From positions 1 through 9,795 of IMG/VR virus record IMGVR_UViG_2778261533_000002: DNA of 9,795 nt. One strand, given 5' to 3'. This DNA is from a virus. Taxonomy: Duplodnaviria > Heunggongvirae > Uroviricota > Caudoviricetes. Below the pieces are notes generated by a model. The model searched no databases and was not told the DNA's origin. It saw nothing but the letters and a program-made list of their open reading frames with translations. A program made the translations under genes and the position numbers. The first letter of the stretch is position 1, and every line of letters begins with the position of its first letter. Positions 1 through 9,795 of this stretch are shown one piece after another.

Positions 1-235
1 CATGACAAGGTCATCGGGCATTATCTGAACATAAAACACTATCAGTAAGTTGGAGTCATTACCAAGCTATAGATGATAGAAAAATTGGAGCGGCAATGTA
101 TATATTTTCTAGCCATAATGGGTTTTCTACAATCAAGTATCCAAAAGGTATTAAGTATATTATAGCCAATAGTTGAAGGTTTTTTAATTTGGATGATGCG
201 TCAACCAACTTATTTTTATATTCCATACAACGTCC

Positions 236-1309
236 TTATTTCAACTTTAACGCCAAATCTTCAGCTTTTGGATGATAATACCGCATTAGCATTCTTGGAT
301 CTTTATGTCCTGTAATTTTGGTCAGTTCATGCATAGGGAAAATTTCAGCAAGTCGAGAAGTTGCTTCATGTCGAAGGTCATGAAATCTTAAATCTTTAAG
401 GAATGATTCATCACATAATGAGTTTGTTTTCTCGTATCGTTCTCTGGCTCGTTTTACAGCTCGGTCAAAAGCTCGGGTAATCGCGTCTGCACGCATATCA
501 AAAACCTTATCAGCAGCTGGCTTAGAATGTTCCTTGAGACTGGACAGTATCGTGATGGCTTTCGTTGATAAAGGGACATCGCGGGCATTACCATTCTTAG
601 TATCCGGCAGATGTGCAACTCGCCGATCAAGATCGATAAAGCGCCATCGAAGCTCTGCGATTTCGCTACGGCGCATGGCTGTCTCTAACGCCAGAAGAAT
701 GATTGCTGGCAATACTAATGAATGTGTTGCGGCGATGATATGTTCGATCTCGTTGGCTATTTCCTTTCCTGACGTAACACCGGTTTTCTCAGAAACTACA
801 GGCAGCGCTTCCAGGCGTCTGGTCCTGGAGTTCTTGGGTTGAGGTTTGCGAATGGCCTCTACGGGGTTCAGCAGGCTCTCCATGCCCCATTCTTTCCGCG
901 AAACGTTGAATACATGAGAAAGTAAGGCCAAACGCCTTAAAACGGTTGCAGGGGCATAGATTTTCAACCATTCATCTCTCAGCTTGGCGACATCGGCACT
1001 CCTGATGCTGGCCATATAGTTTTTCGCCAGCTGAGTGCCTTTTAGTATCCGCACCAATGATCGGTCTTGCACTGCCCCTTTTTTGTCGGGAACAATCTCT
1101 TTTTCATATCGCGTTAGGGCTTCATACAATGTCGTAGATTCCGCTTCGCTGCGGCTAAGCCAAACTCCTCTCGCCATTTCTGACTCGATCATTTTGGCCC
1201 AAGCTTCTGCTTCTACTTTGGTGTTAAAGGTTTTGGTTTGAGAGGGAAAACCTCGTTTACGGATTTGAGCTTCCCATTGGTAGTTACCACGTTTGCGTAT
1301 AGTCGCCAT
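236..1309 (-). CDS. Tyrosine-type site-specific integrase of element A
   Basis: Open frame 236-1339 on the minus strand. The track start at 1339 is TTG; the in-frame ATG at 1309 (MATIRKRGNYQWEAQIRKRG...) is the more likely start. C-terminal catalytic signature of tyrosine recombinases is present: RFHDLRHEATSRL and the tyrosine in MRYYH. Stop at 236-238. Confidence 0.85.
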   Translation of the reverse strand: MATIRKRGNYQWEAQIRKRGFPSQTKTFNTKVEAEAWAKMIESEMARGVWLSRSEAESTTLYEALTRYEKEIVPDKKGAVQDRSLVRILKGTQLAKNYMASIRSADVAKLRDEWLKIYAPATVLRRLALLSHVFNVSRKEWGMESLLNPVEAIRKPQPKNSRTRRLEALPVVSEKTGVTSGKEIANEIEHIIAATHSLVLPAIILLALETAMRRSEIAELRWRFIDLDRRVAHLPDTKNGNARDVPLSTKAITILSSLKEHSKPAADKVFDMRADAITRAFDRAVKRARERYEKTNSLCDESFLKDLRFHDLRHEATSRLAEIFPMHELTKITGHKDPRMLMRYYHPKAEDLALKLK

Positions 1310-1397
1310 TTCTGTCTGATTCCTAACGAACTGTGGCAATATTGTGGCAAAAAATCCATTTAAATTCGATAGGTATTGATTTTACAAGATCAATTTA

Positions 1398-1446
1398 CGC
1401 ATTCGTAATGCGAAGGTCGTAGGTTCGACTCCTATTATCGGCACCA
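1398..1446 (+). other. Attachment-site core: 3'-terminal 49 nt of a tRNA-Thr(CGU) gene (thrW-like), including the T-arm, acceptor 3' strand and CCA; not a complete tRNA
   Basis: CGCATTCGTAATGCGAAGGTCGTAGGTTCGACTCCTATTATCGGCACCA folds as anticodon stem-loop (anticodon CGT), variable loop, T-arm (TTCGACT loop) and acceptor 3' strand plus CCA. The upstream sequence does not supply an acceptor 5' strand or D-arm. Identity to E. coli thrW is recalled from memory. Confidence 0.8.
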
Positions 1447-1460
1447 TTTAAATCAATAAG

Positions 1461-2624
1461 TTACACATCATTAGTACCTTCCTTATTTTTTGACTGGGAC
1501 GAATTTGGGACCGATGGGTTCAGGATCGAGTCTATTTGCCGTGCGTGTTCGGTAAGGTGATTAGGTGCAAGGTGAGCATATCGACGAACCATTTCGATAG
1601 ACTCCCAGCCTCCCATTTCCTGTAACACTGACAACGGGACTCCGGCTTGAACCAGCCAACTTGCCCAGGTGTGTCTCAAGTCGTGAAATCTGAAATCATC
1701 AATACCAGCCCGTCTCAGCGCCGCTTTCCAGGCTGTGTTTGCGTCATACCGCATCTTCCTTACTGTTGGCGCTTTCGTTCCGTCTGGTTTGGTACAGCTT
1801 TCCTTGTACACAAATACCCAACGGTGATGATTCCCGATTTGTTTTTTCAAAACGCGACATGCAGTATCATTCAGCGCAACGCCAATTGCGCGGTTTGATT
1901 TACTCTCTTCCGGGTTTATCCATGCCACCCGGCGCTGCATGTCTATTTGTTGCCATTCAAGGTTGATGATGTTCGAGCGTCTTAAGCCTGTTGCCAGTGC
2001 AAATTCAACAACAGACTTTAATGGCTCCGGACATTCATCAATCAGCCTTTGTGCTTCATGGGGCTCCAGCCAGCGGATCCGTTTATTCTTTGGTTGAGGC
2101 ACTTTAATAATTGGTGCCTTATCCAGCATTTTCCATTCACGCTCTGCGGCTCTTAGTAGGGCCTTTATAAATGAAAGATGCGTAGCCTTCGTTGCAACGG
2201 ACGCTGGTTTTGGCGTGTATTCTGGAACAGGTTTCCCTTTTTTTCTGCATGCTTCTGCCCTGAGTCTCCAGTTTTCCTCATGACGCCGGTTCGTCATTTT
2301 CTGCATTGCTGAATAAATTTTTGATTCAGTAATGTCTCTTAGTTGCATTCCTGCGAAATGTTGAAGCCAGAATCCGATCCGGCTTTTGTCATCGTCCAGT
2401 GATTTTTTATGTGCTTTCTCTTCAAGCCACCTGACACACGCTTCCTCGAACGTTATATCAGGTATTTCACCAAGTTTGCTGACCCGCCATGCTTCAGCCT
2501 TTAGCTTGTCATGGAGTTCTGTCGCCTGCCTTTTGTCCTTTGTTCCAAGAGACTGTTTAAATCTTTTACCGTTCGGCAATGTGAAACTGGCGTACCATAT
2601 TTCACCTCTGCGGAAGAGTGACAT
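1461..2624 (-). CDS. int: Phage integrase, P22 Int-like tyrosine recombinase (387 aa)
   Basis: ATG at 2622-2624 ([14 protein letters not shown]...), stop at 1461-1463. Catalytic motifs [14 protein letters not shown] and VRRYAHL are present. Length and N-terminus match my recollection of P22 Int, which integrates at thrW. Confidence 0.9.
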
Positions 2625-2851
2625 TTTCTTTCCTCTGTTATGCCATCACCCGCGCTCACCTGGACAGTATGCAGCGGAGACTGAAGAGCCGCAATGCAGG
2701 CTTGTCGTGTTGTGAGGTAAGGAGATTTATTCTTAGTGGGATCTTTGCGTGTTGCCTGAAGACGCCCTGTGCGTATCCAGTTAATGGCAGTCGGTCTGGA
2801 TATCTTGAGAAAATGACAGGCCTCATCGAGTGTGAGGCTGTATGGCTCCAT
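2501..2851 (-). CDS. xis: Excisionase (Xis), 116 aa, helix-turn-helix
   Basis: The track ORF 2501-2935 is an upstream extension. The internal ATG at 2849-2851 ([31 protein letters not shown]...) gives a 116-aa product and overlaps the stop of the upstream gene by 1 nt (TAATG). The 3' end overlaps int by 124 nt in another frame. The position upstream of int and the HTH-like segment fit an excisionase. Confidence 0.75.
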
Positions 2852-3156
2852 TATTTCACCTCTTGCTGTGACATTGTTGAAAAATGGATACCAGCTCGTT
2901 GCTGCCAGACGATCCAACCGAGAGTCATATCCCATGCCATGTATTCGTTATCGCCGTTTTTTGCTCTCCGACGATCTACTAAGTTACCGAAACGCTTTTC
3001 CATGAATAATTCATAAGCTTCGCGTTCATCTGGTTCTACTTCCAGAGATAGGAGTGCGATTTCATAAGCACGGCGCTCAATATCGTCTCGCACGTCAAGG
3101 CTGCTGATACGCTCTTTAATTTCTTTAATCAGTTCTTTGTCGGTAAAAGTGGTCAT
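2851..3156 (-). CDS. Hypothetical phage early protein (101 aa)
   Basis: ATG at 3154-3156 overlaps the stop of the upstream gene by 1 nt (TAATG), and its own stop overlaps the xis start by 1 nt. Acidic, helical-looking sequence with no recognisable motif. Confidence 0.6.
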   Translation of the reverse strand: MTTFTDKELIKEIKERISSLDVRDDIERRAYEIALLSLEVEPDEREAYELFMEKRFGNLVDRRRAKNGDNEYMAWDMTLGWIVWQQRAGIHFSTMSQQEVK

Positions 3157-3518
3157 TATGCTCCAGCCTCCGGTGCTTTTGGCATTACTGCCCAGTGAGT
3201 GATATTGACGTTTTCAAGGTCCCCGACCTGAAATGTCCACTGCCATTCTCCGGTTTCTTTTTGTCCCCAGGTGTACCAGAGAGAACGCCAACCAATTAGC
3301 CAGCCTTCTCCGTTAGCATCGAATAACAAAACACTTTCATTTGCTGGTGGCAGTTCAGTTGACACTGGTATTACTTTGTTTTCCTGTGCTGCACATTTAG
3401 CTTCAAGCGCATCGAATTTACGCACCAGGTATTCAGCATCTGTTTCATTTACTTTCAGATCTCGCGGTACACATCTCCCACGAAGAAACCCTTCCATTTC
3501 GAAAACATTCATGCGCAT
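3156..3518 (-). CDS. DUF551-like phage protein (120 aa)
   Basis: ATG at 3516-3518 is preceded by GGAG at an appropriate distance. The C-terminal segment WQWTFQVGDLENVNITHWAVMPKAPE resembles the conserved THWMPLPEPP end of DUF551 proteins, as I recall the family. First gene of the leftward operon. Confidence 0.65.
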   Translation of the reverse strand: MRMNVFEMEGFLRGRCVPRDLKVNETDAEYLVRKFDALEAKCAAQENKVIPVSTELPPANESVLLFDANGEGWLIGWRSLWYTWGQKETGEWQWTFQVGDLENVNITHWAVMPKAPEAGA

Positions 3519-3973
3519 TTGCGTAACTCCGATAACTCGTTAAAGCGTTCCATAAACATCCCGTAACAGACAACAGGGCAGAGAACGGTGCTGTCTTTTT
3601 CAGTTTGAGAGTGGCGGTGTTAGTTTCTCCACAAAACAGAGAAGAACACCTGCGGTGGCAGCCGCCCGGATGGATTGGGTTATGAGCCCGTCGTCCGGTG
3701 ATGCTCTTCTCTGTTTTGTAAAAAGAGCGGTACCAGCCGGAAGCAAGTGTACAAACTGGTACCGCCAAAGCAGTGGCTGTTGTGGTGACCGGTGCTGATC
3801 TCCGGCTTGCGGTTATTTCAGACTCTCACGGGCGTTTAATTGCCCCGCCGAACAGCTCTTTTCCGCAATAGCTGCAATGTCTTTCGCGCATCAGTCTGCG
3901 CATTCACCACAACGCTGAGAGCACTTAGCCAGTTATCTATCCGAAAGATTAACAGAACACCTTCAATTTTTAA
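3519..3973. promoter_or_regulatory. Divergent control region between the leftward (int/xis) and rightward operons; contains two large inverted repeats and no ORF
   Basis: Imperfect palindrome with 18-bp arms (3631-3648 and 3702-3719, 17 of 18 complementary) separated by 53 bp. Immediately after, a perfect 10-bp inverted repeat GCGGTACCAG/CTGGTACCGC (3727-3736 and 3756-3765) with a 19-bp spacer. A hairpin followed by TTTTT lies at about 3566-3600. Promoter hexamers were not confidently assigned. Confidence 0.4.
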
Positions 3974-4057
3974 CCACAGAACGATGAGGCTAACCGCAAT
4001 GCGTCGAATGTTTATCAGCTTAACGTTGCGAAGCTTCAGGCAGCGGCATTTTCTCAA

Positions 4058-4212
4058 CTGTCAGATTCTGACCCGTCAAAATCTGACGCATCAAAATCTG
4101 ACCCGTCAAAATTTGATGCGTCGAAATCTGGCAAAAAAGCGGGTTTTCACCCGTCAGAATCTGGCGGGGATCCGTCAGTAAAATCAAAACATGATCCGTC
4201 AGATAAAAAACC
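4058..4212. repeat. Tandem 15-bp repeats, consensus cCGTCAAAATCTGAc: five contiguous units (4058-4132) plus three degenerate CCGTCAG-initiated copies (4151, 4172, 4196)
   Basis: Direct reading: ctgtcagattctgac / ccgtcaaaatctgac / gcatcaaaatctgac / ccgtcaaaatttgat / gcgtcgaaatctggc. The period is a multiple of 3 and sits in an open frame, where it encodes DPSKS/DASKS-type pentapeptides. Confidence 0.8.
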
Positions 4213-4330
4213 TTCTCGTCCGGACGCTTCGCAACCGGACACGCAGACGGCTGAACAGGATTTTTTAACTCGCCATCCTGATGCGGTTGTATTCAGCCCT
4301 AAAAAGCGCCAGTGGGGGACGCAGGATGAT

Positions 4331-4699
4331 TTGACCTGCGCACAGTGGCTCTGGAAAAAAATCATCGCCCTGTACGAGCAGGCTGCCGAATGTGACGGCG
4401 AGGTGGTTCGTCCCAAAGAACCGAACTGGACAGCCTGGGCAAACGAAATTCGCCTGATGTGTGTGCAGGATGGTCGTACTCACAAACAAATCTGCGAGAT
4501 GTACAGCCGCGTCAGCCGCGATCCGTTCTGGTGCCGTAACGTGCTCAGCCCGTCGAAGCTGCGGGAAAAATGGGATGAGCTTTCTCTGCGCTTATCGCCG
4601 TCCGTCAGCACGTACACAGAAAAACGCGAAGACCCGTACTTCAAAGCCAGTTACGACAATGTGGACTACAGCCAGATCCCGGCAGGATTCAGGGGGTGA
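4331..4699 (+). CDS. DnaT-like (primosomal protein I C-terminal domain-like) phage replication-associated protein; coordinates are from the first canonical start (TTG), but the frame is open from 3974
   Basis: The C-terminus ...DNVDYSQIPAGFRG matches the characteristic C-terminal end of E. coli DnaT (...SEPDSQIPPGFRG, from memory). Stop at 4697-4699, immediately before the SD (AGGGGG) and ATG of the next gene. The same frame is stop-free for 119 codons upstream (3974-4330) with no ATG/GTG/TTG, so the 5' extent is unresolved. Confidence 0.6.
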   Translation: MTCAQWLWKKIIALYEQAAECDGEVVRPKEPNWTAWANEIRLMCVQDGRTHKQICEMYSRVSRDPFWCRNVLSPSKLREKWDELSLRLSPSVSTYTEKREDPYFKASYDNVDYSQIPAGFRG

Positions 4700-4701
4700 G
4701 C

Positions 4702-5190
4702 ATGAGTCTTTTGAATGACGTTCAGAAATTCATTGAAGCCCATCCGGGCTGTACTTCCGGAGACATTGCGGATGCTTTTGCAGGTTACTCACGGCAGCGC
4801 GTTCTGCAGTCAGCAAGCAAGTTACGTCAGAGTGGGCGTGTGGCTCACCGTTGTGAAGGAGATACACACAGACATTTCCCGCGCCTGACTGAGAGAGCGC
4901 AGGATCCGGAACCACAACCAGTTCGTGAAACCAGACCTGTGCGCAATTTCTATGTCGGCACTAACGACCCGCGGGTGATTTTGTGCCTGACCCGCCAGGC
5001 GGAAGAACTGGAGTCCAGGGGCTTATACCGTCGTGCTGCAACGGTGTGGATGGCGGCATTCCGTGAAAGCCACTCCCAGCCAGAACGAAACAATTTTCTG
5101 GCGCGTCGTGAACGGTGTTTACGGAAAAGCAGTAAGCGGGCTGCATCAGGTGAAGAGTGGTATCTCTCAGGGAATTACGTGGGGGCTTAA
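4702..5190 (+). CDS. PerC-family-like transcriptional regulator with an N-terminal winged-helix-like region (162 aa)
   Basis: ATG at 4702 sits 5 nt after AGGGGG; the track GTG at 4696 is less likely. The C-terminal motif AEELESRGLYRRAATVWMAAF resembles the LE.GLWRRAA.RW core I recall for PerC/Pch proteins. Stop at 5188-5190 overlaps the next start (TAATG). Confidence 0.6.
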   Translation: MSLLNDVQKFIEAHPGCTSGDIADAFAGYSRQRVLQSASKLRQSGRVAHRCEGDTHRHFPRLTERAQDPEPQPVRETRPVRNFYVGTNDPRVILCLTRQAEELESRGLYRRAATVWMAAFRESHSQPERNNFLARRERCLRKSSKRAASGEEWYLSGNYVGA

Positions 5191-5843
5191 TGAGTAATAA
5201 ATATTGCCAGGCGCTGGCGGAACTGCGGAACAAACCAGCCCATGAACTGAAGGAAGTGGGCGATCAGTGGCGCACGCCGGACAACATTTTCTGGGGAATT
5301 AACACTCTGTTTGGCCCGTTTGTTCTGGATCTGTTTACTGACGGTGATAACGCCAAATGTGCTGCGTATTACACGGCGGAAGACAACGCGCTGGCGCATG
5401 ACTGGTCAGAACGCCTTGCGGAGCTTAAAGGTGCTGCCTTTGGTAATCCCCCATACAGCCGCGCCAGTCAGCATGAGGGGCAATACATCACCGGCATGCG
5501 TTACATCATGAAGCATGCCAGTGCCATGCGTGATAAAGGCGGGCGCTATGTTTTCCTGATCAAAGCTGCCACCAGCGAAGTGTGGTGGCCGGAAGATGCA
5601 GATCATATTGCTTTTATTCGCGGGCGTATTGGTTTTGAACTGCCTGCCTGGTTTATCCCGAAGGATGAGAAGCAGGTGCCGACAGGCGCTTTCTTCGCTG
5701 GTGCTATTGCTGTTTTCGACAAGACCTGGAAGGGACCGGCAATCAGCTACATCGGGCGCTATGAACTTGAGGCATGTGGTGAGGCCTTTCTGGCGCAGGT
5801 TCGCCAGCAGGCAGAAAAACTGGTCAGGGAGATGGCGGCATGA
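5190..5843 (+). CDS. Phage Dam-type DNA N6-adenine methyltransferase (217 aa)
   Basis: ATG at 5190 is preceded by GGGGG and overlaps the upstream stop; the track GTG at 5157 is less likely. Motifs [10 protein letters not shown] and FGNPPYS (catalytic NPPY) fit the small phage Dam family found in T1 and lambdoid nin regions. Stop at 5841-5843 overlaps the next ATG (ATGA). Confidence 0.75.
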
Positions 5844-6154
5844 CGACGTTAACTCAATGCCAGCAGCAGGTGCTGGATATGCTGATTTCTTATCAGAAAG
5901 AACGTGGCTTCCCGCCAACCAATCAGGAGGTGGCAACCATGCTGGGATGCATGGCCCGTCTGAAAAAGAACAACAGCGATTTGCACGATTTATTAGTAGA
6001 TTATTATGTAGGTGGTATGACGTTTATGGCGCTTGCCCGTAAACATGGGCGTTCTGATTGCTGGGTTGGGCGCTTATTGCAAAAGGCAGAAGGCATCATT
6101 GAAGGTATGTTGATAATGTTAGAAATAGAATTGGAAATGGACTCAAATATCTAG
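5840..6154 (+). CDS. Q-like late antiterminator (QuuD/21-type short Q) with an atypical LexA-like N-terminus (104 aa)
   Basis: ATGA-coupled to the MTase. The C-terminal two thirds ([35 protein letters not shown]...AEGIIEGML) resemble my recollection of the DLP12 QuuD antiterminator. The N-terminal 36 aa ([33 protein letters not shown]) instead resemble the LexA N-terminal DNA-binding helix pair. The last 20 codons lie in AT-rich sequence. Confidence 0.5.
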
Positions 6155-6281
6155 AAAGATATTTTATGAGTATCTGGATTTTTAATTTGTATTGTTAGCA
6201 TGAAATTAAGGAGGGTGGACTGTTTGTGCTTTATATTAATGTTTTTGTGGGGATTTAATAACCACTGATTTATTTGAGGGT

Positions 6282-6316
6282 GGCGCTAATGTACAAGGTT
6301 TTTAGTAATTAGCGCC
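6282..6316 (+). terminator. Possible intrinsic terminator or hairpin downstream of the Q-like gene
   Basis: Perfect 9-bp inverted repeat GGCGCTAAT/ATTAGCGCC with a 17-nt loop, followed on the plus strand by a U-rich tract (tgctggtttgttattttatttt). It lies 11 nt past the stop of the convergent minus-strand gene, but that strand has no U-run after it. Confidence 0.3.
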
Positions 6317-6326
6317 TGCTGGTTTG

Positions 6327-7778
6327 TTATTTTATTTTGCTTACTATATTTGTAATAAGTGGGTCAAATTTCTCATCAATAATTTCAATATATTTTTTAA
6401 TTGCTAAAGTTCTAATTACTTCCTCCTCACATTCTGCTTCTTTAGCAATTGCTTGAGTGTAATTGTGATGATCACTAATCCCTTCCTTTTTTATTAACCA
6501 ATCAAAATCAATATGATACTCCTTGTAGAGGAATTTTTTTACTTCCTCATGTTGAAATACTTCTACTTCTGGTGGCCTATTGCCAGGGAAAGAAAATAAA
6601 TCATCTTTAATGTTTTCTCCAACATCTGCATCTCTTACGGCAATAACATTAAGGCCTGCTTTCTTGAATACCTCGACTGCTTGTCGGACTGCATCTTTAT
6701 CTCCAATATCAGTGATTTGAATGGATTTAAGAATGTCTCTCCGCTTTGCTCTAATTACTTCACTAAGTAAAACTTTTGCAAACTGGTCTTCTACGCAAAT
6801 ATGCAGCCCTTTAAACTGCCCATCAGACAGTATTGATCTCACATGAGTTGTTGAAATTCCATCTTTGATATAGACACCAGTCTGATCTCTAATAAGTAAT
6901 TTTCGTGCATCAGGAGGTAAAGCATTTAATATCACACTTGAGTGTGTTGATAATATTATTTGATGTTTTCTACGTTGACATACTTCCATTAAATATTTTG
7001 CAAATTCATACTGTGCGCTTTCATGAAGAGATGTTTCTGGTTCTTCTAGTACGAAAAGACTTTGCTCTGGAGCTGTTTCAAGCATATCAACCGTATAAAG
7101 AACTCTTCCTTCGCCAAACCCCATGTTATTTTCAGAATAAGAATACCCAAGTCTTTCAACAATACCAATTTCTGAACGACGTGCTCTATGAGAAATTCCT
7201 TGGAATGCGATATCATCATATGGATGACCTATTATTTTTGCCATCTTCAATATTACTGAATGGTCGACGCTTCTTCTCTCTGTTAAATCAAAGTCTTTAC
7301 CGCCATAAACACTTATATCTCTACGTTCTACTTTTGGAATATAGACAGTAAAACCAATGTAAAAACAGTGTCTTTCTGGTTGTCTTTTATATCCAGACCA
7401 AGAAGACTTTATGCGAGTGACAGTCACATCTTGTGTTTTCGTTGAATCATTTGTTTCATATTTATAAATGACACTGGCGTCATTATCGAAAGGGGCTGGA
7501 TCGGCTTTAGATACAGGGAAAAAATCTTTAATATATAATCTCTTATATTCACGGGCTGTAACTGGTTTTTTATATGCGCATATTGCTAACTGCCCAAGAG
7601 TGCTTTTCCCAGCGCCGTTTAGCCCTGATATTGCAGTTACCGGAAAATTTATATTTAATGTTAGTTTTTTTATTCCTCGAAATCCATTTATCTCTAGACT
7701 TTTAATTACGGAGCCAAAGTTTGAGTATCTATTTTTATCAAAGTACATGCATTTTAGTATATTTTTTATGTCTGACAT
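6327..7778 (-). CDS. ABC-type ATPase fused to a Toprim-like nuclease domain; OLD/PARIS/Gabija-like candidate anti-phage defence protein (483 aa)
   Basis: ATG at 7776-7778 has AGGAAAG upstream and an in-frame TAA two codons before it. Walker A GLNGAGKST (about aa 52-60, read directly from the DNA as GGG CTA AAC GGC GCT GGG AAA AGC ACT). Walker B plus D-loop LFVLEEPETSLH (about 241-252). H-loop ILSTHS (about 275-280). C-terminal Toprim-like signature: CVEDQFAKVLL (Glu about 330) and, about 55 aa later, AVRDADVGE (DxDxG, about 383-387). Confidence 0.7.
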   Translation of the reverse strand: MSDIKNILKCMYFDKNRYSNFGSVIKSLEINGFRGIKKLTLNINFPVTAISGLNGAGKSTLGQLAICAYKKPVTAREYKRLYIKDFFPVSKADPAPFDNDASVIYKYETNDSTKTQDVTVTRIKSSWSGYKRQPERHCFYIGFTVYIPKVERRDISVYGGKDFDLTERRSVDHSVILKMAKIIGHPYDDIAFQGISHRARRSEIGIVERLGYSYSENNMGFGEGRVLYTVDMLETAPEQSLFVLEEPETSLHESAQYEFAKYLMEVCQRRKHQIILSTHSSVILNALPPDARKLLIRDQTGVYIKDGISTTHVRSILSDGQFKGLHICVEDQFAKVLLSEVIRAKRRDILKSIQITDIGDKDAVRQAVEVFKKAGLNVIAVRDADVGENIKDDLFSFPGNRPPEVEVFQHEEVKKFLYKEYHIDFDWLIKKEGISDHHNYTQAIAKEAECEEEVIRTLAIKKYIEIIDEKFDPLITNIVSKIK

Positions 7779-8043
7779 TTTTTATCTTTCCTGATATGAA
7801 TGAGAGTTATCTTTAGAAAAACAATAAATTTATAACATTTAGAGATGTATTCATCAATGATTGGGTAAATATCGTGCATTTGTTGTTTTAAAATCAACCA
7901 AGAATGATTTTTATAATTATGTCAATTGCCTTATTATCAATATGGTAATGTTTTCTCAATCTAATTATTGGGGGGGAATATATTATTTACAATCGTAAAT
8001 AATCAGATATGCTCTCAAGAGTGGTTACTTCGCCACACAACTT

Positions 8044-8069
8044 AAACCCGCCGTCGAGCGGGTTTTTTT
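8044..8069 (+). terminator. Rho-independent terminator (plus strand)
   Basis: aaacccgc-cgtcga-gcgggttt hairpin (GC core CCCGC/GCGGG) followed directly by a T run of 7 (8063-8069). It marks the right edge of the AT-rich island. Confidence 0.65.
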
Positions 8070-8191
8070 GTACCTGTAAACCTGGTGCAGTACGGTAAAC
8101 ACGCTGGTGGTCGTGAATACTGACTTTTTATCTTGCTGGCTTTTTAGACAAGAGTTATTGGTATGTCATGTTAACCAGAAGGAAAAAAGAC

Positions 8192-8386
8192 ATGTTAAAA
8201 CAGCAAGATATGACAGAAACGGCGAAAGTTGTTTTTAATGAATTAAGCATCGAACCGGCAACAGTCGGGGAGATTGCACAAAACACATATCTTTCACGCG
8301 AACGCTGTCAGTTAATACTGACCCAGTTGGTTATGGCGGGGCTGGCAGATTACCAGTTCGGCTGTTACAGACGCCTTCAGCTATGA
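8192..8386 (+). CDS. Small winged-helix DNA-binding protein (64 aa), possibly PapI/FaeA-like
   Basis: ATG at 8192 lies 8 nt after AGAAGGA; the track ATG at 8168 lacks an SD. The segment ATVGEIAQNTYLSRERCQLILTQLVMAGLA has the spacing of an HTH recognition helix followed by a wing, comparable to PapI as I recall it. Confidence 0.55.
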   Translation: MLKQQDMTETAKVVFNELSIEPATVGEIAQNTYLSRERCQLILTQLVMAGLADYQFGCYRRLQL

Positions 8387-8535
8387 AGGACTTTTAATTT
8401 GTGAAAATGGGCGGCTGGTGGGTGTTGGTAGCACCTGCCAGCCATTCGCTCATGCTTACTGGTCACAAGCGAACCACGGCCCACTGCTTTAGCGCAAAAG
8501 CAGAGTGAGCCTACCAGAGTTACGCTTACTGATCC

Positions 8536-9588
8536 ATGAAAAATACTGTAAAAATAAACAGTGTTGATTTAATCAACGCTGATTGCCTGCATTTTATTCA
8601 GTCCCTGCCTGATGATTCCATTGACCTGATTGTTACCGATCCGCCGTACTTCAAGGTGAAACCCAACGGTTGGGACAATCAGTGGAAAGGGGACGAAGAT
8701 TACCTTAAGTGGCTGGACCACTGTCTGGCCCAGTTCTGGCGGGTGTTGAAACCTGCCGGAAGCCTTTACCTGTTCTGTGGGCATCGCCTGGCATCTGATA
8801 TTGAGATCATGATGCGTGAACGTTTCAACGTGCTTAACCATATCATCTGGGCGAAGCCGTCCGGACGTTGGAATGGGTGTAATAAAGAAAGTCTGCGCGC
8901 ATATTTTCCTGCCACAGAGCGCGTTCTGTTTGCTGAACATTACCAGGGGCCATATCGCGGCAAAAGTGACGGCTATGCGGCAAAAGAAAGGGAACTCAAA
9001 CAGCACATAATGGCACCGCTGATATCGTATTTCAGGGATGCTCGTGCCGAACTGGGTATAACGGCAAAACAAATTGCCGAAGCCACAGGTAAGAAAAATA
9101 TGGTTTCCCACTGGTTTGGTGCCAGTCAGTGGCAGTTGCCGAATGAGGCTGACTATCGGAAGTTACAGGCACTGTTTTCCCGTATAGCGGCAGAGAAGTT
9201 TCAGGAACAACAACTGGAACAACCACACCACCAGCTGGTGGCATCTTATGATTCACTGAATCGCAAATATTCTGAATTGCTGGATGAGTTTAAATCTCTC
9301 CGGCGCTATTTCTCCGTATCAGTCTCCGTGCCTTATACCGATGTCTGGATGCATAAACCCGTTCAGTTCTACCCGGGTAAACATCCGTGTGAGAAACCGG
9401 CGGATATGCTCAGGCAAATAATCAATGCCAGTAGTCGACCTGGTGATCTGGTTGCTGATTTTTTTATGGGATCCGGTTCCACAATAAAAGCAGCAATGGC
9501 GCTGGGGCGTCGGGCCTTAGGTGTTGAGCTTGAGTCAGAGCGGTTTAACCAGACAGTGAAAGAGATAAACGAGCTGGTGGGGAAATAA
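8536..9588 (+). CDS. DNA methyltransferase, beta-class N6-adenine/N4-cytosine type (motif IV before motif I), 350 aa; no cognate endonuclease in the window
   Basis: N-terminal [12 protein letters not shown] (catalytic DPPY) and C-terminal [17 protein letters not shown] (AdoMet-binding FxGxG). The central target-recognition region contains an HTH-like segment ([12 protein letters not shown]). A GATC sits immediately 5' of the ATG. Confidence 0.85.
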
Positions 9589-9594
9589 TCTGGT

Positions 9595-9620
9595 GGCCAC
9601 GTCAGGTGGCCTTTTTATTT
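9595..9620 (+). terminator. Rho-independent terminator after the MTase, in the position of a late-region tR'-like terminator upstream of the holin start
   Basis: ggccac-gtcag-gtggcc hairpin (9595-9611) followed by TTTTTATTT (9612-9620), 7 nt after the MTase stop and 36 nt before the holin-like ATG. Confidence 0.65.
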
Positions 9621-9655
9621 CCATTACACAGCACCCGCATCTGCGAGGTGGGGTT

Positions 9656-9784
9656 ATGAAATCCATGGATAAGTTAACAACGGGTGTCGCCTATGGCACC
9701 TCAGCAGGTAGTGCCGGGTACTGGTTTTTACAGTTTGAACCGTCCCGGGAATCCTGGAGACTAAACTCCCTGAGAAAGAGGTAA
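9656..9784 (+). pseudogene. N-terminal remnant of an S21/EssD-type pinholin (dual-start MKSM motif and first transmembrane/SAR segment only)
   Basis: ATG at 9656 is preceded by [33 protein letters not shown] matches the first 26 residues of phage 21 S as I recall them. The frame then diverges ([16 protein letters not shown]) and stops at 9782-9784, and no frame in the remaining window encodes a second TMD. A new RBS-ATG (AAAGAGG, ATG at 9789) follows. Confidence 0.45.
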
Positions 9785-9795
9785 ACAGGATGACT

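Follow-up and report, generated by a model that had tools for sequence, protein, structure and literature searches.

A lambdoid prophage in the Caudoviricetes record IMGVR_UViG_2778261533_000002 carries about 1.9 kb of AT-rich DNA between a Q-like gene and a holin remnant, and this island holds a single gene on the strand opposite to the late operon. The locus raises the question of what kind of gene this is, how it came to lie there and what else the same position may hold. The window considered below is the whole stretch of DNA analysed, positions 1 to 9,795 of the record (9,795 nucleotides, nt). The island is very likely a horizontally acquired defence cargo ('moron') in an exchangeable slot of lambdoid prophages. 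Judged by its sequence, the product, a protein of 483 amino acids (aa), is a distant member of a validated solitary ATPase-Toprim defence family within the OLD superfamily.

Composition and borders of the island

The island and its parts are as follows.

6142..7985, no strand: variable cargo segment, the island proper (blastn breakpoints and composition, GC content 0.33)
6327..7778, minus strand: cargo gene, predicted ABC-ATPase/OLD-type Toprim nuclease of 483 aa, HEC-04-like, identical to WP_032083250.1
7779..7985, minus strand: region upstream of the cargo gene, 207 nt, GC 0.25 (sequence reading and consensus scan)
6283..6317, no strand: hairpin 14 nt past the cargo stop codon (fold of the minus strand)

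In a sliding window, GC is 0.52-0.55 at 4200-6000, drops to 0.24-0.38 over about 6000-8100 and then returns to 0.48-0.51. The segment 6142-7985 has a GC of 0.330 against 0.49 for the remaining prophage (1398-9735; z = -13.7), and the lowest-GC stretch of 1844 nt in the whole window begins at 6111. The drop of about 1.9 kb described in the initial annotation is thus real, and the limits proposed there, 6095-8040 (GC 0.329), deviate by up to about 50 bp from the breakpoints obtained by comparison. The single gene opposite to the late operon was also recovered, as the sole long open reading frame (ORF) of the segment (6327-7778, minus strand). Its distinct composition is borne out by a GC content at third codon positions of 0.22, compared with 0.42-0.68 in nine flanking genes.

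The breakpoints were obtained by blastn against prophages having the same Q type and other cargo, and lie at 6141/6142 on the left and 7985/7986 on the right. No direct or inverted repeats flanking the island were found, and ARAGORN found no tRNA genes in the window. The Rfam scan of the window gave a single sub-threshold match to a microRNA model (mir-5880), which lies on an iteron array outside the island and is spurious. Because these signatures of insertion were not found, the island as a transposon or an integrase-type insertion was rejected; it was more likely exchanged by recombination within the conserved flanks.

The cargo protein

In Pfam, the 483-aa protein matches AAA_15 (2.2e-19), plus AAA_21, AAA_23 and SMC_N. 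The top PADLOC model is HEC-04 (PDLC04149; 3.9e-47, residues 5-410), and the second is the ATPase-Toprim effector of retron I-B (2.5e-22). Later PADLOC matches (AriA, NsnB, GajA, PtuA) are limited to the region around Walker B. RefSeq names the identical protein WP_032083250.1 an 'ATP-dependent nuclease'. The top match in the PDB is OLD of Thermus scotoductus (6p74), at 5.8e-07 with the single sequence and 1.8e-20 with a profile of 54 homologous sequences. With this profile, the ATPase part matches OLD, AriA, PtuA, GajA and Rad50, and GajA is aligned from the Walker B motif through the Toprim domain.

Both parts of an OLD-family protein are present. The N-terminal ABC-type ATPase has the Walker A, Walker B and H-loop motifs, and the C-terminal Toprim domain has the conserved glutamate and the metal-binding DxD. 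In the 54 homologues, which reach down to 22% identity, G52, N54, G55, K58 and T60 of Walker A (G52-x-N-G-x-G-K58-S/T-T60), E246 of Walker B and H279 of the H-loop are invariant. The same is true of the Toprim residues E330, D331, D383 and E404; D385 is kept in 46 of the 54. As in class 1 (solitary) OLD proteins, a conserved partner (UvrD-like helicase, retron reverse transcriptase or noncoding RNA, GajB) is absent.

The AlphaFold model of the full-length protein has a predicted local distance difference test score (pLDDT) of 69, and its leading fold matches are OLD, GajA and the retron Eco8 effector, with a template modelling (TM) score of only about 0.34. The C-terminal domain was modelled separately (residues 301-483, pLDDT 90.7), since the inserts of the ATPase were modelled poorly. 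Foldseek with this Toprim model again put OLD, GajA and the retron Eco8 effector on top, at weak E-values. The closest structural relative of the C-terminal domain is AriB.

Hma-embedded candidate 4 (HEC-04; WP_081360980.1 of E. coli MOD1-EC5853) was found inside a helicase-methylase-ATPase (Hma) system, and as a single gene it protects E. coli against several phages (T4, T5 and others). The mutants K62A and E319A/D375A/D377A lose defence against T4/T5-like phages. The first 399 residues of this protein, taken from supplementary table 2 of the HEC-04 paper, were compared by BLASTP with the 483-aa protein and aligned collinearly at 26% identity (E 5e-30). In this alignment K62, E319 and D375/D377 pair with K58, E330 and D383/D385. 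The match to the family profile, the collinear homology to a tested member and the retention of its essential residues place the protein in the HEC-04/IbfA type. IbfA, the HEC-04 homologue of IncI1 plasmids (R64, pUA1135), is a phage-interference factor that confers resistance to phage infection; its phenotype is altered early and late phage transcription with no clear loss of DNA (PMC12111858).

Expression and expected mode of action

A Shine-Dalgarno-like AGGAAAG (complement of 7786-7792) stands upstream of the cargo ATG, and a consensus scan of the minus strand gave candidate sigma-70 promoters at 7992-7964 and 7940-7913. The gene's own promoter presumably lies within the 207-nt upstream region. 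Behind the gene, the hairpin at 6283-6317 (-15.6 kcal/mol, z = -4.0 in minus-strand folding) has no U-run after it on the minus strand and a U-rich tract after it on the plus strand; it may serve as a terminator or an insulator between the converging Q and cargo transcripts.

For the 483-aa protein we infer expression from its own promoter and anti-phage activity, as well as the trigger and the substrate. The cargo would be one self-contained gene, read from its own AT-rich promoter region against phage transcription, and because of this promoter and the antisense orientation the lysogen would make the product independently of Q. By analogy with HEC-04, OLD, GajA and PARIS, the N-terminal ATPase is most likely a sensor or switch responding to an infection cue. 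It would license the C-terminal, metal-dependent Toprim nuclease to cut nucleic acid and so stop the infecting phage. OLD and GajA cut DNA, and AriB cuts tRNA; the substrate here may be phage or host DNA, or tRNA as for AriB of PARIS, and the phenotype of IbfA fits neither DNA nor tRNA cleavage cleanly. Abortive infection is a possible outcome. Convergence with early rightward transcription through Q may silence the cargo during the phage's own lytic growth, an effect also proposed for tai in phi80.

Distribution of the nuclease family

Among 5426 complete E. coli genomes, 11 have the island, each time with Q on one side and the same downstream genes on the other. Intact and decayed prophages do not differ in the protein (100% identity). 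None of the INPHARED phages carries the island; there the flanks alone match. Relatives of 482-484 aa with 57-78% identity occur in Klebsiella, Vibrio, Pseudomonas, Aeromonas, Shewanella, Methylomonas and others, and the family comprises 128 clusters at 50% identity (E <1e-30). The plasmid collection contains distant relatives only, the best having 49% identity (Acidiphilium).

DNA similarity to the loci of other genera is limited to the ORF, so that the flanking non-coding sequence is not common to them. The neighbours of the gene differ among E. coli, Klebsiella, Pseudomonas, Aeromonas and Shewanella. Klebsiella has phage or satellite genes beside it, Pseudomonas a ThsB-TIR-like gene and Shewanella housekeeping genes. 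The Aeromonas homologue lies in an integrase island, with a DUF3427/HNH gene 13 nt downstream (L020-L022 6468-7274) that is absent elsewhere. In every host examined the nuclease gene is much more AT-rich than its surroundings, for example GC 0.37 against 0.48-0.62 in Klebsiella and 0.41 against 0.58-0.62 in Pseudomonas. Such composition, together with a family having proven anti-phage activity, supports the view that the gene is horizontally acquired defence or fitness cargo, as had been supposed from its sequence.

One Klebsiella prophage (L010 3584-9408) has the homologue between two copies of a protease-capsid fusion gene, which gives the impression of an insertion into the head module.

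The slot and its other cargoes

One or both flanks of the island are found in about 3600-4000 of the 5426 E. coli genomes, and related phages hold unrelated cargo or none between these conserved flanks, as is typical of a variable slot ('moron' site or hotspot). The comparison of the Q interval that had been proposed for this locus therefore gave the expected result; neither uniform composition nor presence of the gene in all related prophages was found. The slot is empty in FT130 (L004). It contains an nmpC/ompC-like porin on the minus strand in L003, in L016 and in DLP12 itself (L026). A 148-aa protein on the minus strand is found in phage PhiR40_1 (L005 3290-3736) and strain S115 (L006), and occurs in 185 E. 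coli genomes; an NA37 nucleoid-associated protein with a 408-aa protein (L015 1040-3411) occurs in 30. In 10 genomes a C5 cytosine methyltransferase lies beside a HEC-04-like ATPase-Toprim protein of 592-596 aa (L017 584-3423; L132 from IMG/VR), which may be a restriction-modification-like pairing of methyltransferase and OLD-type nuclease.

For a wider census, IMG/VR was searched for the conserved 36-nt leader motif; the slot anchor motif downstream of PF06530-type Q genes is AAGAGTGGTTACTTCGYCACACARCTTAAACCCGCC. The leader motif was found in at least 119 viral contigs, and 99 of those listed have a PF06530-type Q upstream; the counts that follow refer to the contigs listed. Four sites are empty; their Q-to-motif distance is 83 nt, and some 40 nt separate the Q stop codon from the motif. 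Otherwise this distance is 626-3029 nt, the interval in the window being 1862 nt. The filled slots form 23 sequence clusters of GC 0.31-0.42, and in 22 of the 23 the main ORF is antisense (minus strand). A porin is present in 49 of the 99 contigs.

Known or candidate defence genes were detected by PADLOC in at least 7 slot clusters. They include Kiwa in contig L036 (KwaB, 2e-150, with a 173-aa membrane protein), the candidates PDC-S20 (KAP/PifA-like), PDC-S42 and PDC-M53A, an HNH effector-like protein, an NsnA/PD-T4-2-like DUF262 protein and the pair of HEC-04-like protein and methyltransferase. About half of the 23 clusters lack a PADLOC match.

Cargoes without such a match include the NA37 and 408-aa pair, the 148-aa protein, which is lipoprotein-like, recurrent pairs of a ~310-aa (313-aa) and a ~150-aa membrane protein, a 427-aa protein and others. 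Their IMG/VR loci are L042, L087, L090, L031, L106, L033, L064, L134 and L095. All are antisense and AT-rich, and they are candidates for new functions.

The slot is already known from DLP12 as the site of nmpC. A literature search found hotspots of P2/P4, of integrative and conjugative elements and of phi80 and none on the interval between Q and the late promoter PR', an absence that such a search does not prove. A more far-reaching proposal is that this interval is a dedicated, antisense-constrained and undescribed defence hotspot of enterobacterial lambdoid phages and prophages; that the cargoes unmatched by PADLOC, more than half of the cargo classes in this sample, are new anti-phage systems; that antisense placement works as a lytic-phase switch; and that the 483-aa clade forms its own HEC-04-like subfamily with its own trigger and possibly a tRNA substrate as for AriB. 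Taken together, this proposal is tentative and at present rather doubtful.

The nuclease adds one more prophage-borne single-gene ATPase-Toprim defence candidate; it is already in RefSeq, and its PADLOC label would be HEC-04. The slot itself is the more interesting by-product, being easily delimited and rich in uncharacterised antisense cargo genes. The Q stop codon and the 36-nt leader motif delimit it in any enterobacterial genome, and the value of the nuclease lies in marking this exchange site.

The right flank: late promoter, leader and terminator

The elements adjoining the island on the right are given below.

7986..8043, plus strand: probable late promoter and conserved leader GTTAAGAGTGGTTACTTCGCCACACAACTT (alignment of prophages; putative promoter function)
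7986-7991, plus strand: candidate -35 hexamer TTTACA (hexamer reading)
8008-8013, plus strand: candidate -10 hexamer TATGCT (hexamer reading)
8044..8072, plus strand: intrinsic terminator, probable tR' of the late leader (scan and fold)

The right junction was aligned across ten prophages. Starting at about 7990, the eight prophages whose Q is of the PF06530 type all have the -35 and -10 hexamers, the leader, the hairpin and the seven T, whatever the cargo. In the other two, L018 with a ydfT-type Q and L004 with another Q type, homology begins only at the hairpin (8045). The hairpin and terminator are thus invariant in 10 of 10, including prophages with an empty slot or a different Q. The -10 hexamer is consistent across the alignment (TATGCT, or TAATCT/TATTAT in other subtypes). 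The -35 hexamer is not conserved in all Q subtypes, and the assignment as a late promoter therefore stays putative.

In DLP12 the element lies at 6578-6659 of L026, 120 nt upstream of essD, and in the four empty viral contigs it stands directly after Q. The element is consistent with late promoter, leader and tR', as it follows Q in the empty slot, co-varies with Q type and precedes the lysis genes. The segment 7986-8072 is probably the late promoter, the Q-utilisation leader (qut) and tR' of this Q family, a reading of aligned sequences that predicts a leader RNA of about 52 nt. The promoter-leader-terminator element is common to thousands of E. coli prophages with a QuuD-type Q.

The terminator at 8044-8072 consists of a GC-rich hairpin followed by seven T (-20.1 kcal/mol, z = -3.7). 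A terminator at the right boundary had been listed in the initial annotation among the marks of acquired cargo. It is present, but since it is invariant whatever the cargo it belongs to the phage backbone and not to the island, and being on the plus strand it cannot end the minus-strand cargo transcript.

The same boundary decides between the two known positions with which the island had been equated. In Stx phages, stx lies downstream of PR'/tR' and is co-oriented and co-transcribed with the late genes. The cargo of the window is upstream of the element at 7986-8072, whose identity with PR'/tR' is putative, and on the opposite strand; a late-operon cargo of the Stx type was accordingly rejected. 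The position downstream, equivalent to that of stx, is taken here by a small winged-helix gene and an N6/N4 methyltransferase gene, both of the backbone. With Q on one side and the probable late promoter on the other, the slot corresponds to the position of nmpC, as the same flanks and element in DLP12 confirm, and not to that of stx. The cargo would be outside Q control and is convergent with early transcription through Q.

The host prophage and its decay

The host is a lambdoid prophage of E. coli, integrated at thrW and decayed in the window. The genes around the slot that bear on its state are these.

5840..6154, plus strand: LexA-Q fusion ORF, 104 aa (Pfam and comparison with intact prophages)
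8192..8386, plus strand: small winged-helix (TrmB-like) gene of the backbone late region (weak Pfam DprA_WH and TrmB; annotated in all relatives)
8536..9588, plus strand: N6/N4 DNA methyltransferase gene of the backbone (Pfam N6_N4_Mtase 2.2e-42; PADLOC MTase_II 3.3e-152)
9653..9735, plus strand: remnant of a P21-type holin (S/essD) (Pfam Phage_holin_2_1; homology to intact prophages ends at 9735)

An apparently complete counterpart is the prophage at thrW of strain E2528-C1 (L019). Compared with it, the window is without the yfdR-yfdP genes, the repressor/cro region with part of the replication gene, and the entire block from rusA through KilA-N and DUF968 to the N-terminus of Q. The loss of this last block is a 2.6-kb deletion that removed rusA, KilA-N, DUF968 and the Q N-terminus and created the fusion ORF. 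In it, residues 1-36 are the N-terminus of a LexA-family protein (LexA_DNA_bind), followed in frame by the C-terminal two-thirds of Q, which is of the QuuD type (Phage_antitermQ, residues 34-99, 1.7e-17), with the junction at about 5945-5950. The 'Q-like gene' of the initial annotation therefore does contain an antitermination domain, in the form of this deletion-made chimera. Because Q is chimeric and truncated, the late antiterminator of the prophage is, to judge from the sequence, probably non-functional.

The placement of the island between Q and the holin likewise stands in part: the Q-like gene ends at 6154, as stated, but the holin remnant is 1.6 kb to the right, beyond the winged-helix and methyltransferase genes. 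Of essD, 27 codons are left, up to 9735, where one end of an insertion sequence of the IS3 family (IS; 9736-9795) truncates the gene; we take this IS to be IS629/IS1203-like, and the window ends within it. The 68-nt end has matches in thousands of places, at loci annotated as 'IS3 family transposase'.

The methyltransferase at 8536-9588, a type II-like enzyme, occurs with every cargo type and with the empty slot. A second orphan methyltransferase of the backbone, Dam-like and N6-adenine-specific (5190-5843), is also kept whatever the cargo. Both likely serve the phage in self-protection against restriction.

Farther to the left, 4.3 copies of a 15-nt tandem repeat TCTGACCCGTCAAAA lie at 4067-4130, inside the remnant of a helix-turn-helix replication-initiator-like gene, and are probably origin iterons. 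Positions 1-1460 form a separate element, in which a second tyrosine integrase (236-1339, minus strand) is accompanied by a 55-aa ORF and the end of an IS1. Strains TD225-C4 and TW14425 have a 100% identical locus where their thrW island ends on the pao side. RefSeq annotates 1335-1446 in that locus as an odd 112-nt 'tRNA-Ser', whereas ARAGORN finds no tRNA anywhere in the window; positions 1398-1446 are the 3' 49 nt of tRNA-Thr (thrW) in L019. The element and the prophage look like a tandem arrangement at a duplicated attachment site.

Weighing of the evidence and alternative explanations

Several observations weigh against defence cargo of the HEC-04 type. The identity to HEC-04 is just 26%, and the 'AAA family ATPase' genes of IncI1-type plasmids, assumed to be IbfA, are about 23% identical over residues 25-392. 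The protein has no NCBIfam equivalog, every match being far under the cut-off. The ATPase inserts of the full-length model are of low confidence (pLDDT <50 for 125 residues), and for the Toprim domain Foldseek gave moderate fold matches (E 7.5e-3 to 3e-2, TM 0.41-0.46). The phenotype of IbfA is not an obvious fit to simple DNA cleavage. Sigma-70 consensus matches for the cargo are not above the shuffled expectation (13 against 9.8 +/- 3.3); the promoter sites are therefore candidates only, and expression of the cargo is assumed. About half of the sampled slots hold a porin, not a classical defence gene, so that this is a general cargo site and not one exclusive to defence. Finally, the anti-phage activity of the 483-aa protein is predicted by analogy with its homologues.

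It is very improbable that the nuclease works in a restriction-modification-like manner with the backbone methyltransferase at 8536-9588, the Dam-like methylase at 5190-5843 or both, the methylase shielding self DNA and the nuclease cutting unmodified DNA. Such pairing is suggested by the two methyltransferases in the same prophage, by the C5 methyltransferase directly beside the 592-aa HEC-04-like protein in L017/L132 and by the embedding of the original HEC-04 in a helicase-methylase-ATPase system. Both enzymes, however, belong to the backbone and occur with all cargo types and with the empty slot, and the pairing is judged unlikely for this reason. No methyltransferase adjoins the homologues in Klebsiella, Pseudomonas, Aeromonas and Shewanella, and the tested HEC-04 defends as a single gene.

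A role outside immunity, either in phage or cell DNA metabolism (a RecF/SMC/Rad50-like ATPase with Toprim acting in recombination, repair or replication) or as a selfish addiction module, is very improbable. The ATPase does match SMC_N, RecF and Rad50 heads, and P2 Old kills recB/recC hosts. The authors of the IbfA study also speculate on roles beyond defence (PMC12111858). Against this, the gene is rare and can be dispensed with, as prophages of the same backbone that lack it show. It lies antisense in a slot that also holds Kiwa and other defence candidates, its closest profile is that of a validated defence protein, and the family moves between distant genera at 57-78% identity, AT-rich and with variable neighbours.

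Hardly any credence can be given to the cargo gene as an inert relic, unexpressed or non-functional in a decaying prophage. The prophage is indeed heavily degraded, the repressor region and the block from rusA to the N-terminus of Q being deleted and the holin gene interrupted by an IS, and a promoter of the cargo could not be established. Yet the ORF is intact with all catalytic residues and has a Shine-Dalgarno-like sequence ahead of its start codon, and apparently complete prophages encode exactly the same protein (100% identity). An intact cargo ORF beside a deleted repressor region, a fused and truncated Q and an IS-cut holin is consistent with host domestication of phage cargo, the decayed prophage having retained its defence gene.

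That the low GC is ordinary phage-intrinsic composition is a practically negligible possibility: lambdoid genomes are mosaic with local AT-rich stretches, and the first 450 nt of the window also have a GC of 0.33-0.34, but the composition changes at the prophage breakpoints, some prophages have an empty slot, the gene is not at this position in all related prophages and its nearest relatives are in other genera and not in phages of the same family.

Comparison with known systems

As an acquired defence cargo, the 483-aa protein is best compared with HEC-04. Both are single polypeptides with an ABC-type ATPase followed by Toprim, and of similar length (~490 and 483 aa). Unlike HEC-04, which sits within the Hma system, the gene of the window sits in the Q-PR' slot of a prophage. 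The hidden Markov model (HMM) match ends at residue 410, so that the C-terminal helical extension (~411-483) is outside the HEC-04 model. IbfA is likewise a single-gene ATPase-Toprim protein on a mobile element; it differs in having 518 aa and in being plasmid-borne inside an operon.

Other members of the OLD superfamily are more distant. P2 Old, presumably of 586 aa, is longer than the 483-aa protein, whose top 25 PADLOC matches do not include the 'Old' model. OLD classes 2 (to which Ts, Bp and Xcc OLD belong), 3 and 4 (with GajA) differ in their partners, as UvrD-like helicase, retron and GajB are all absent beside the cargo gene. Membership in Gabija was rejected, the helicase gene being absent from the island and its flanks and the GajA HMMs matching the Walker B region only. 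PARIS consists of two proteins, AriA and AriB (464 + 305 aa), or of a fusion of about 700 aa. It was rejected as well, as the AriA/AriAB HMMs match just residues 210-285, the second gene is absent and the Pfam scan of the 483-aa protein found no DUF4435 (AriB type).

The slot itself has parallels in other phages. Hotspots of P2-like phages and P4-like satellites have conserved flanks and highly variable, AT-rich, often defensive cargo (PMC9122126, PMC9519451). The antisense tai of phi80 is a defence gene directed against late transcription, for which an off-switch during lytic growth was proposed (PMC11364771). The slot shares with these systems the conserved phage flanks around variable, AT-rich, often defensive cargo; they belong to another phage family and another position. 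The closest counterpart is DLP12 (quuD - nmpC - essD). Its cargo is a porin and not a nuclease, and the TrmB-like and methyltransferase genes are missing between the terminator and essD. It has the same slot, with minus-strand cargo between a QuuD-type Q and the promoter-leader-terminator element, and this element is 87% identical over 82 nt and lies upstream of the lysis genes.

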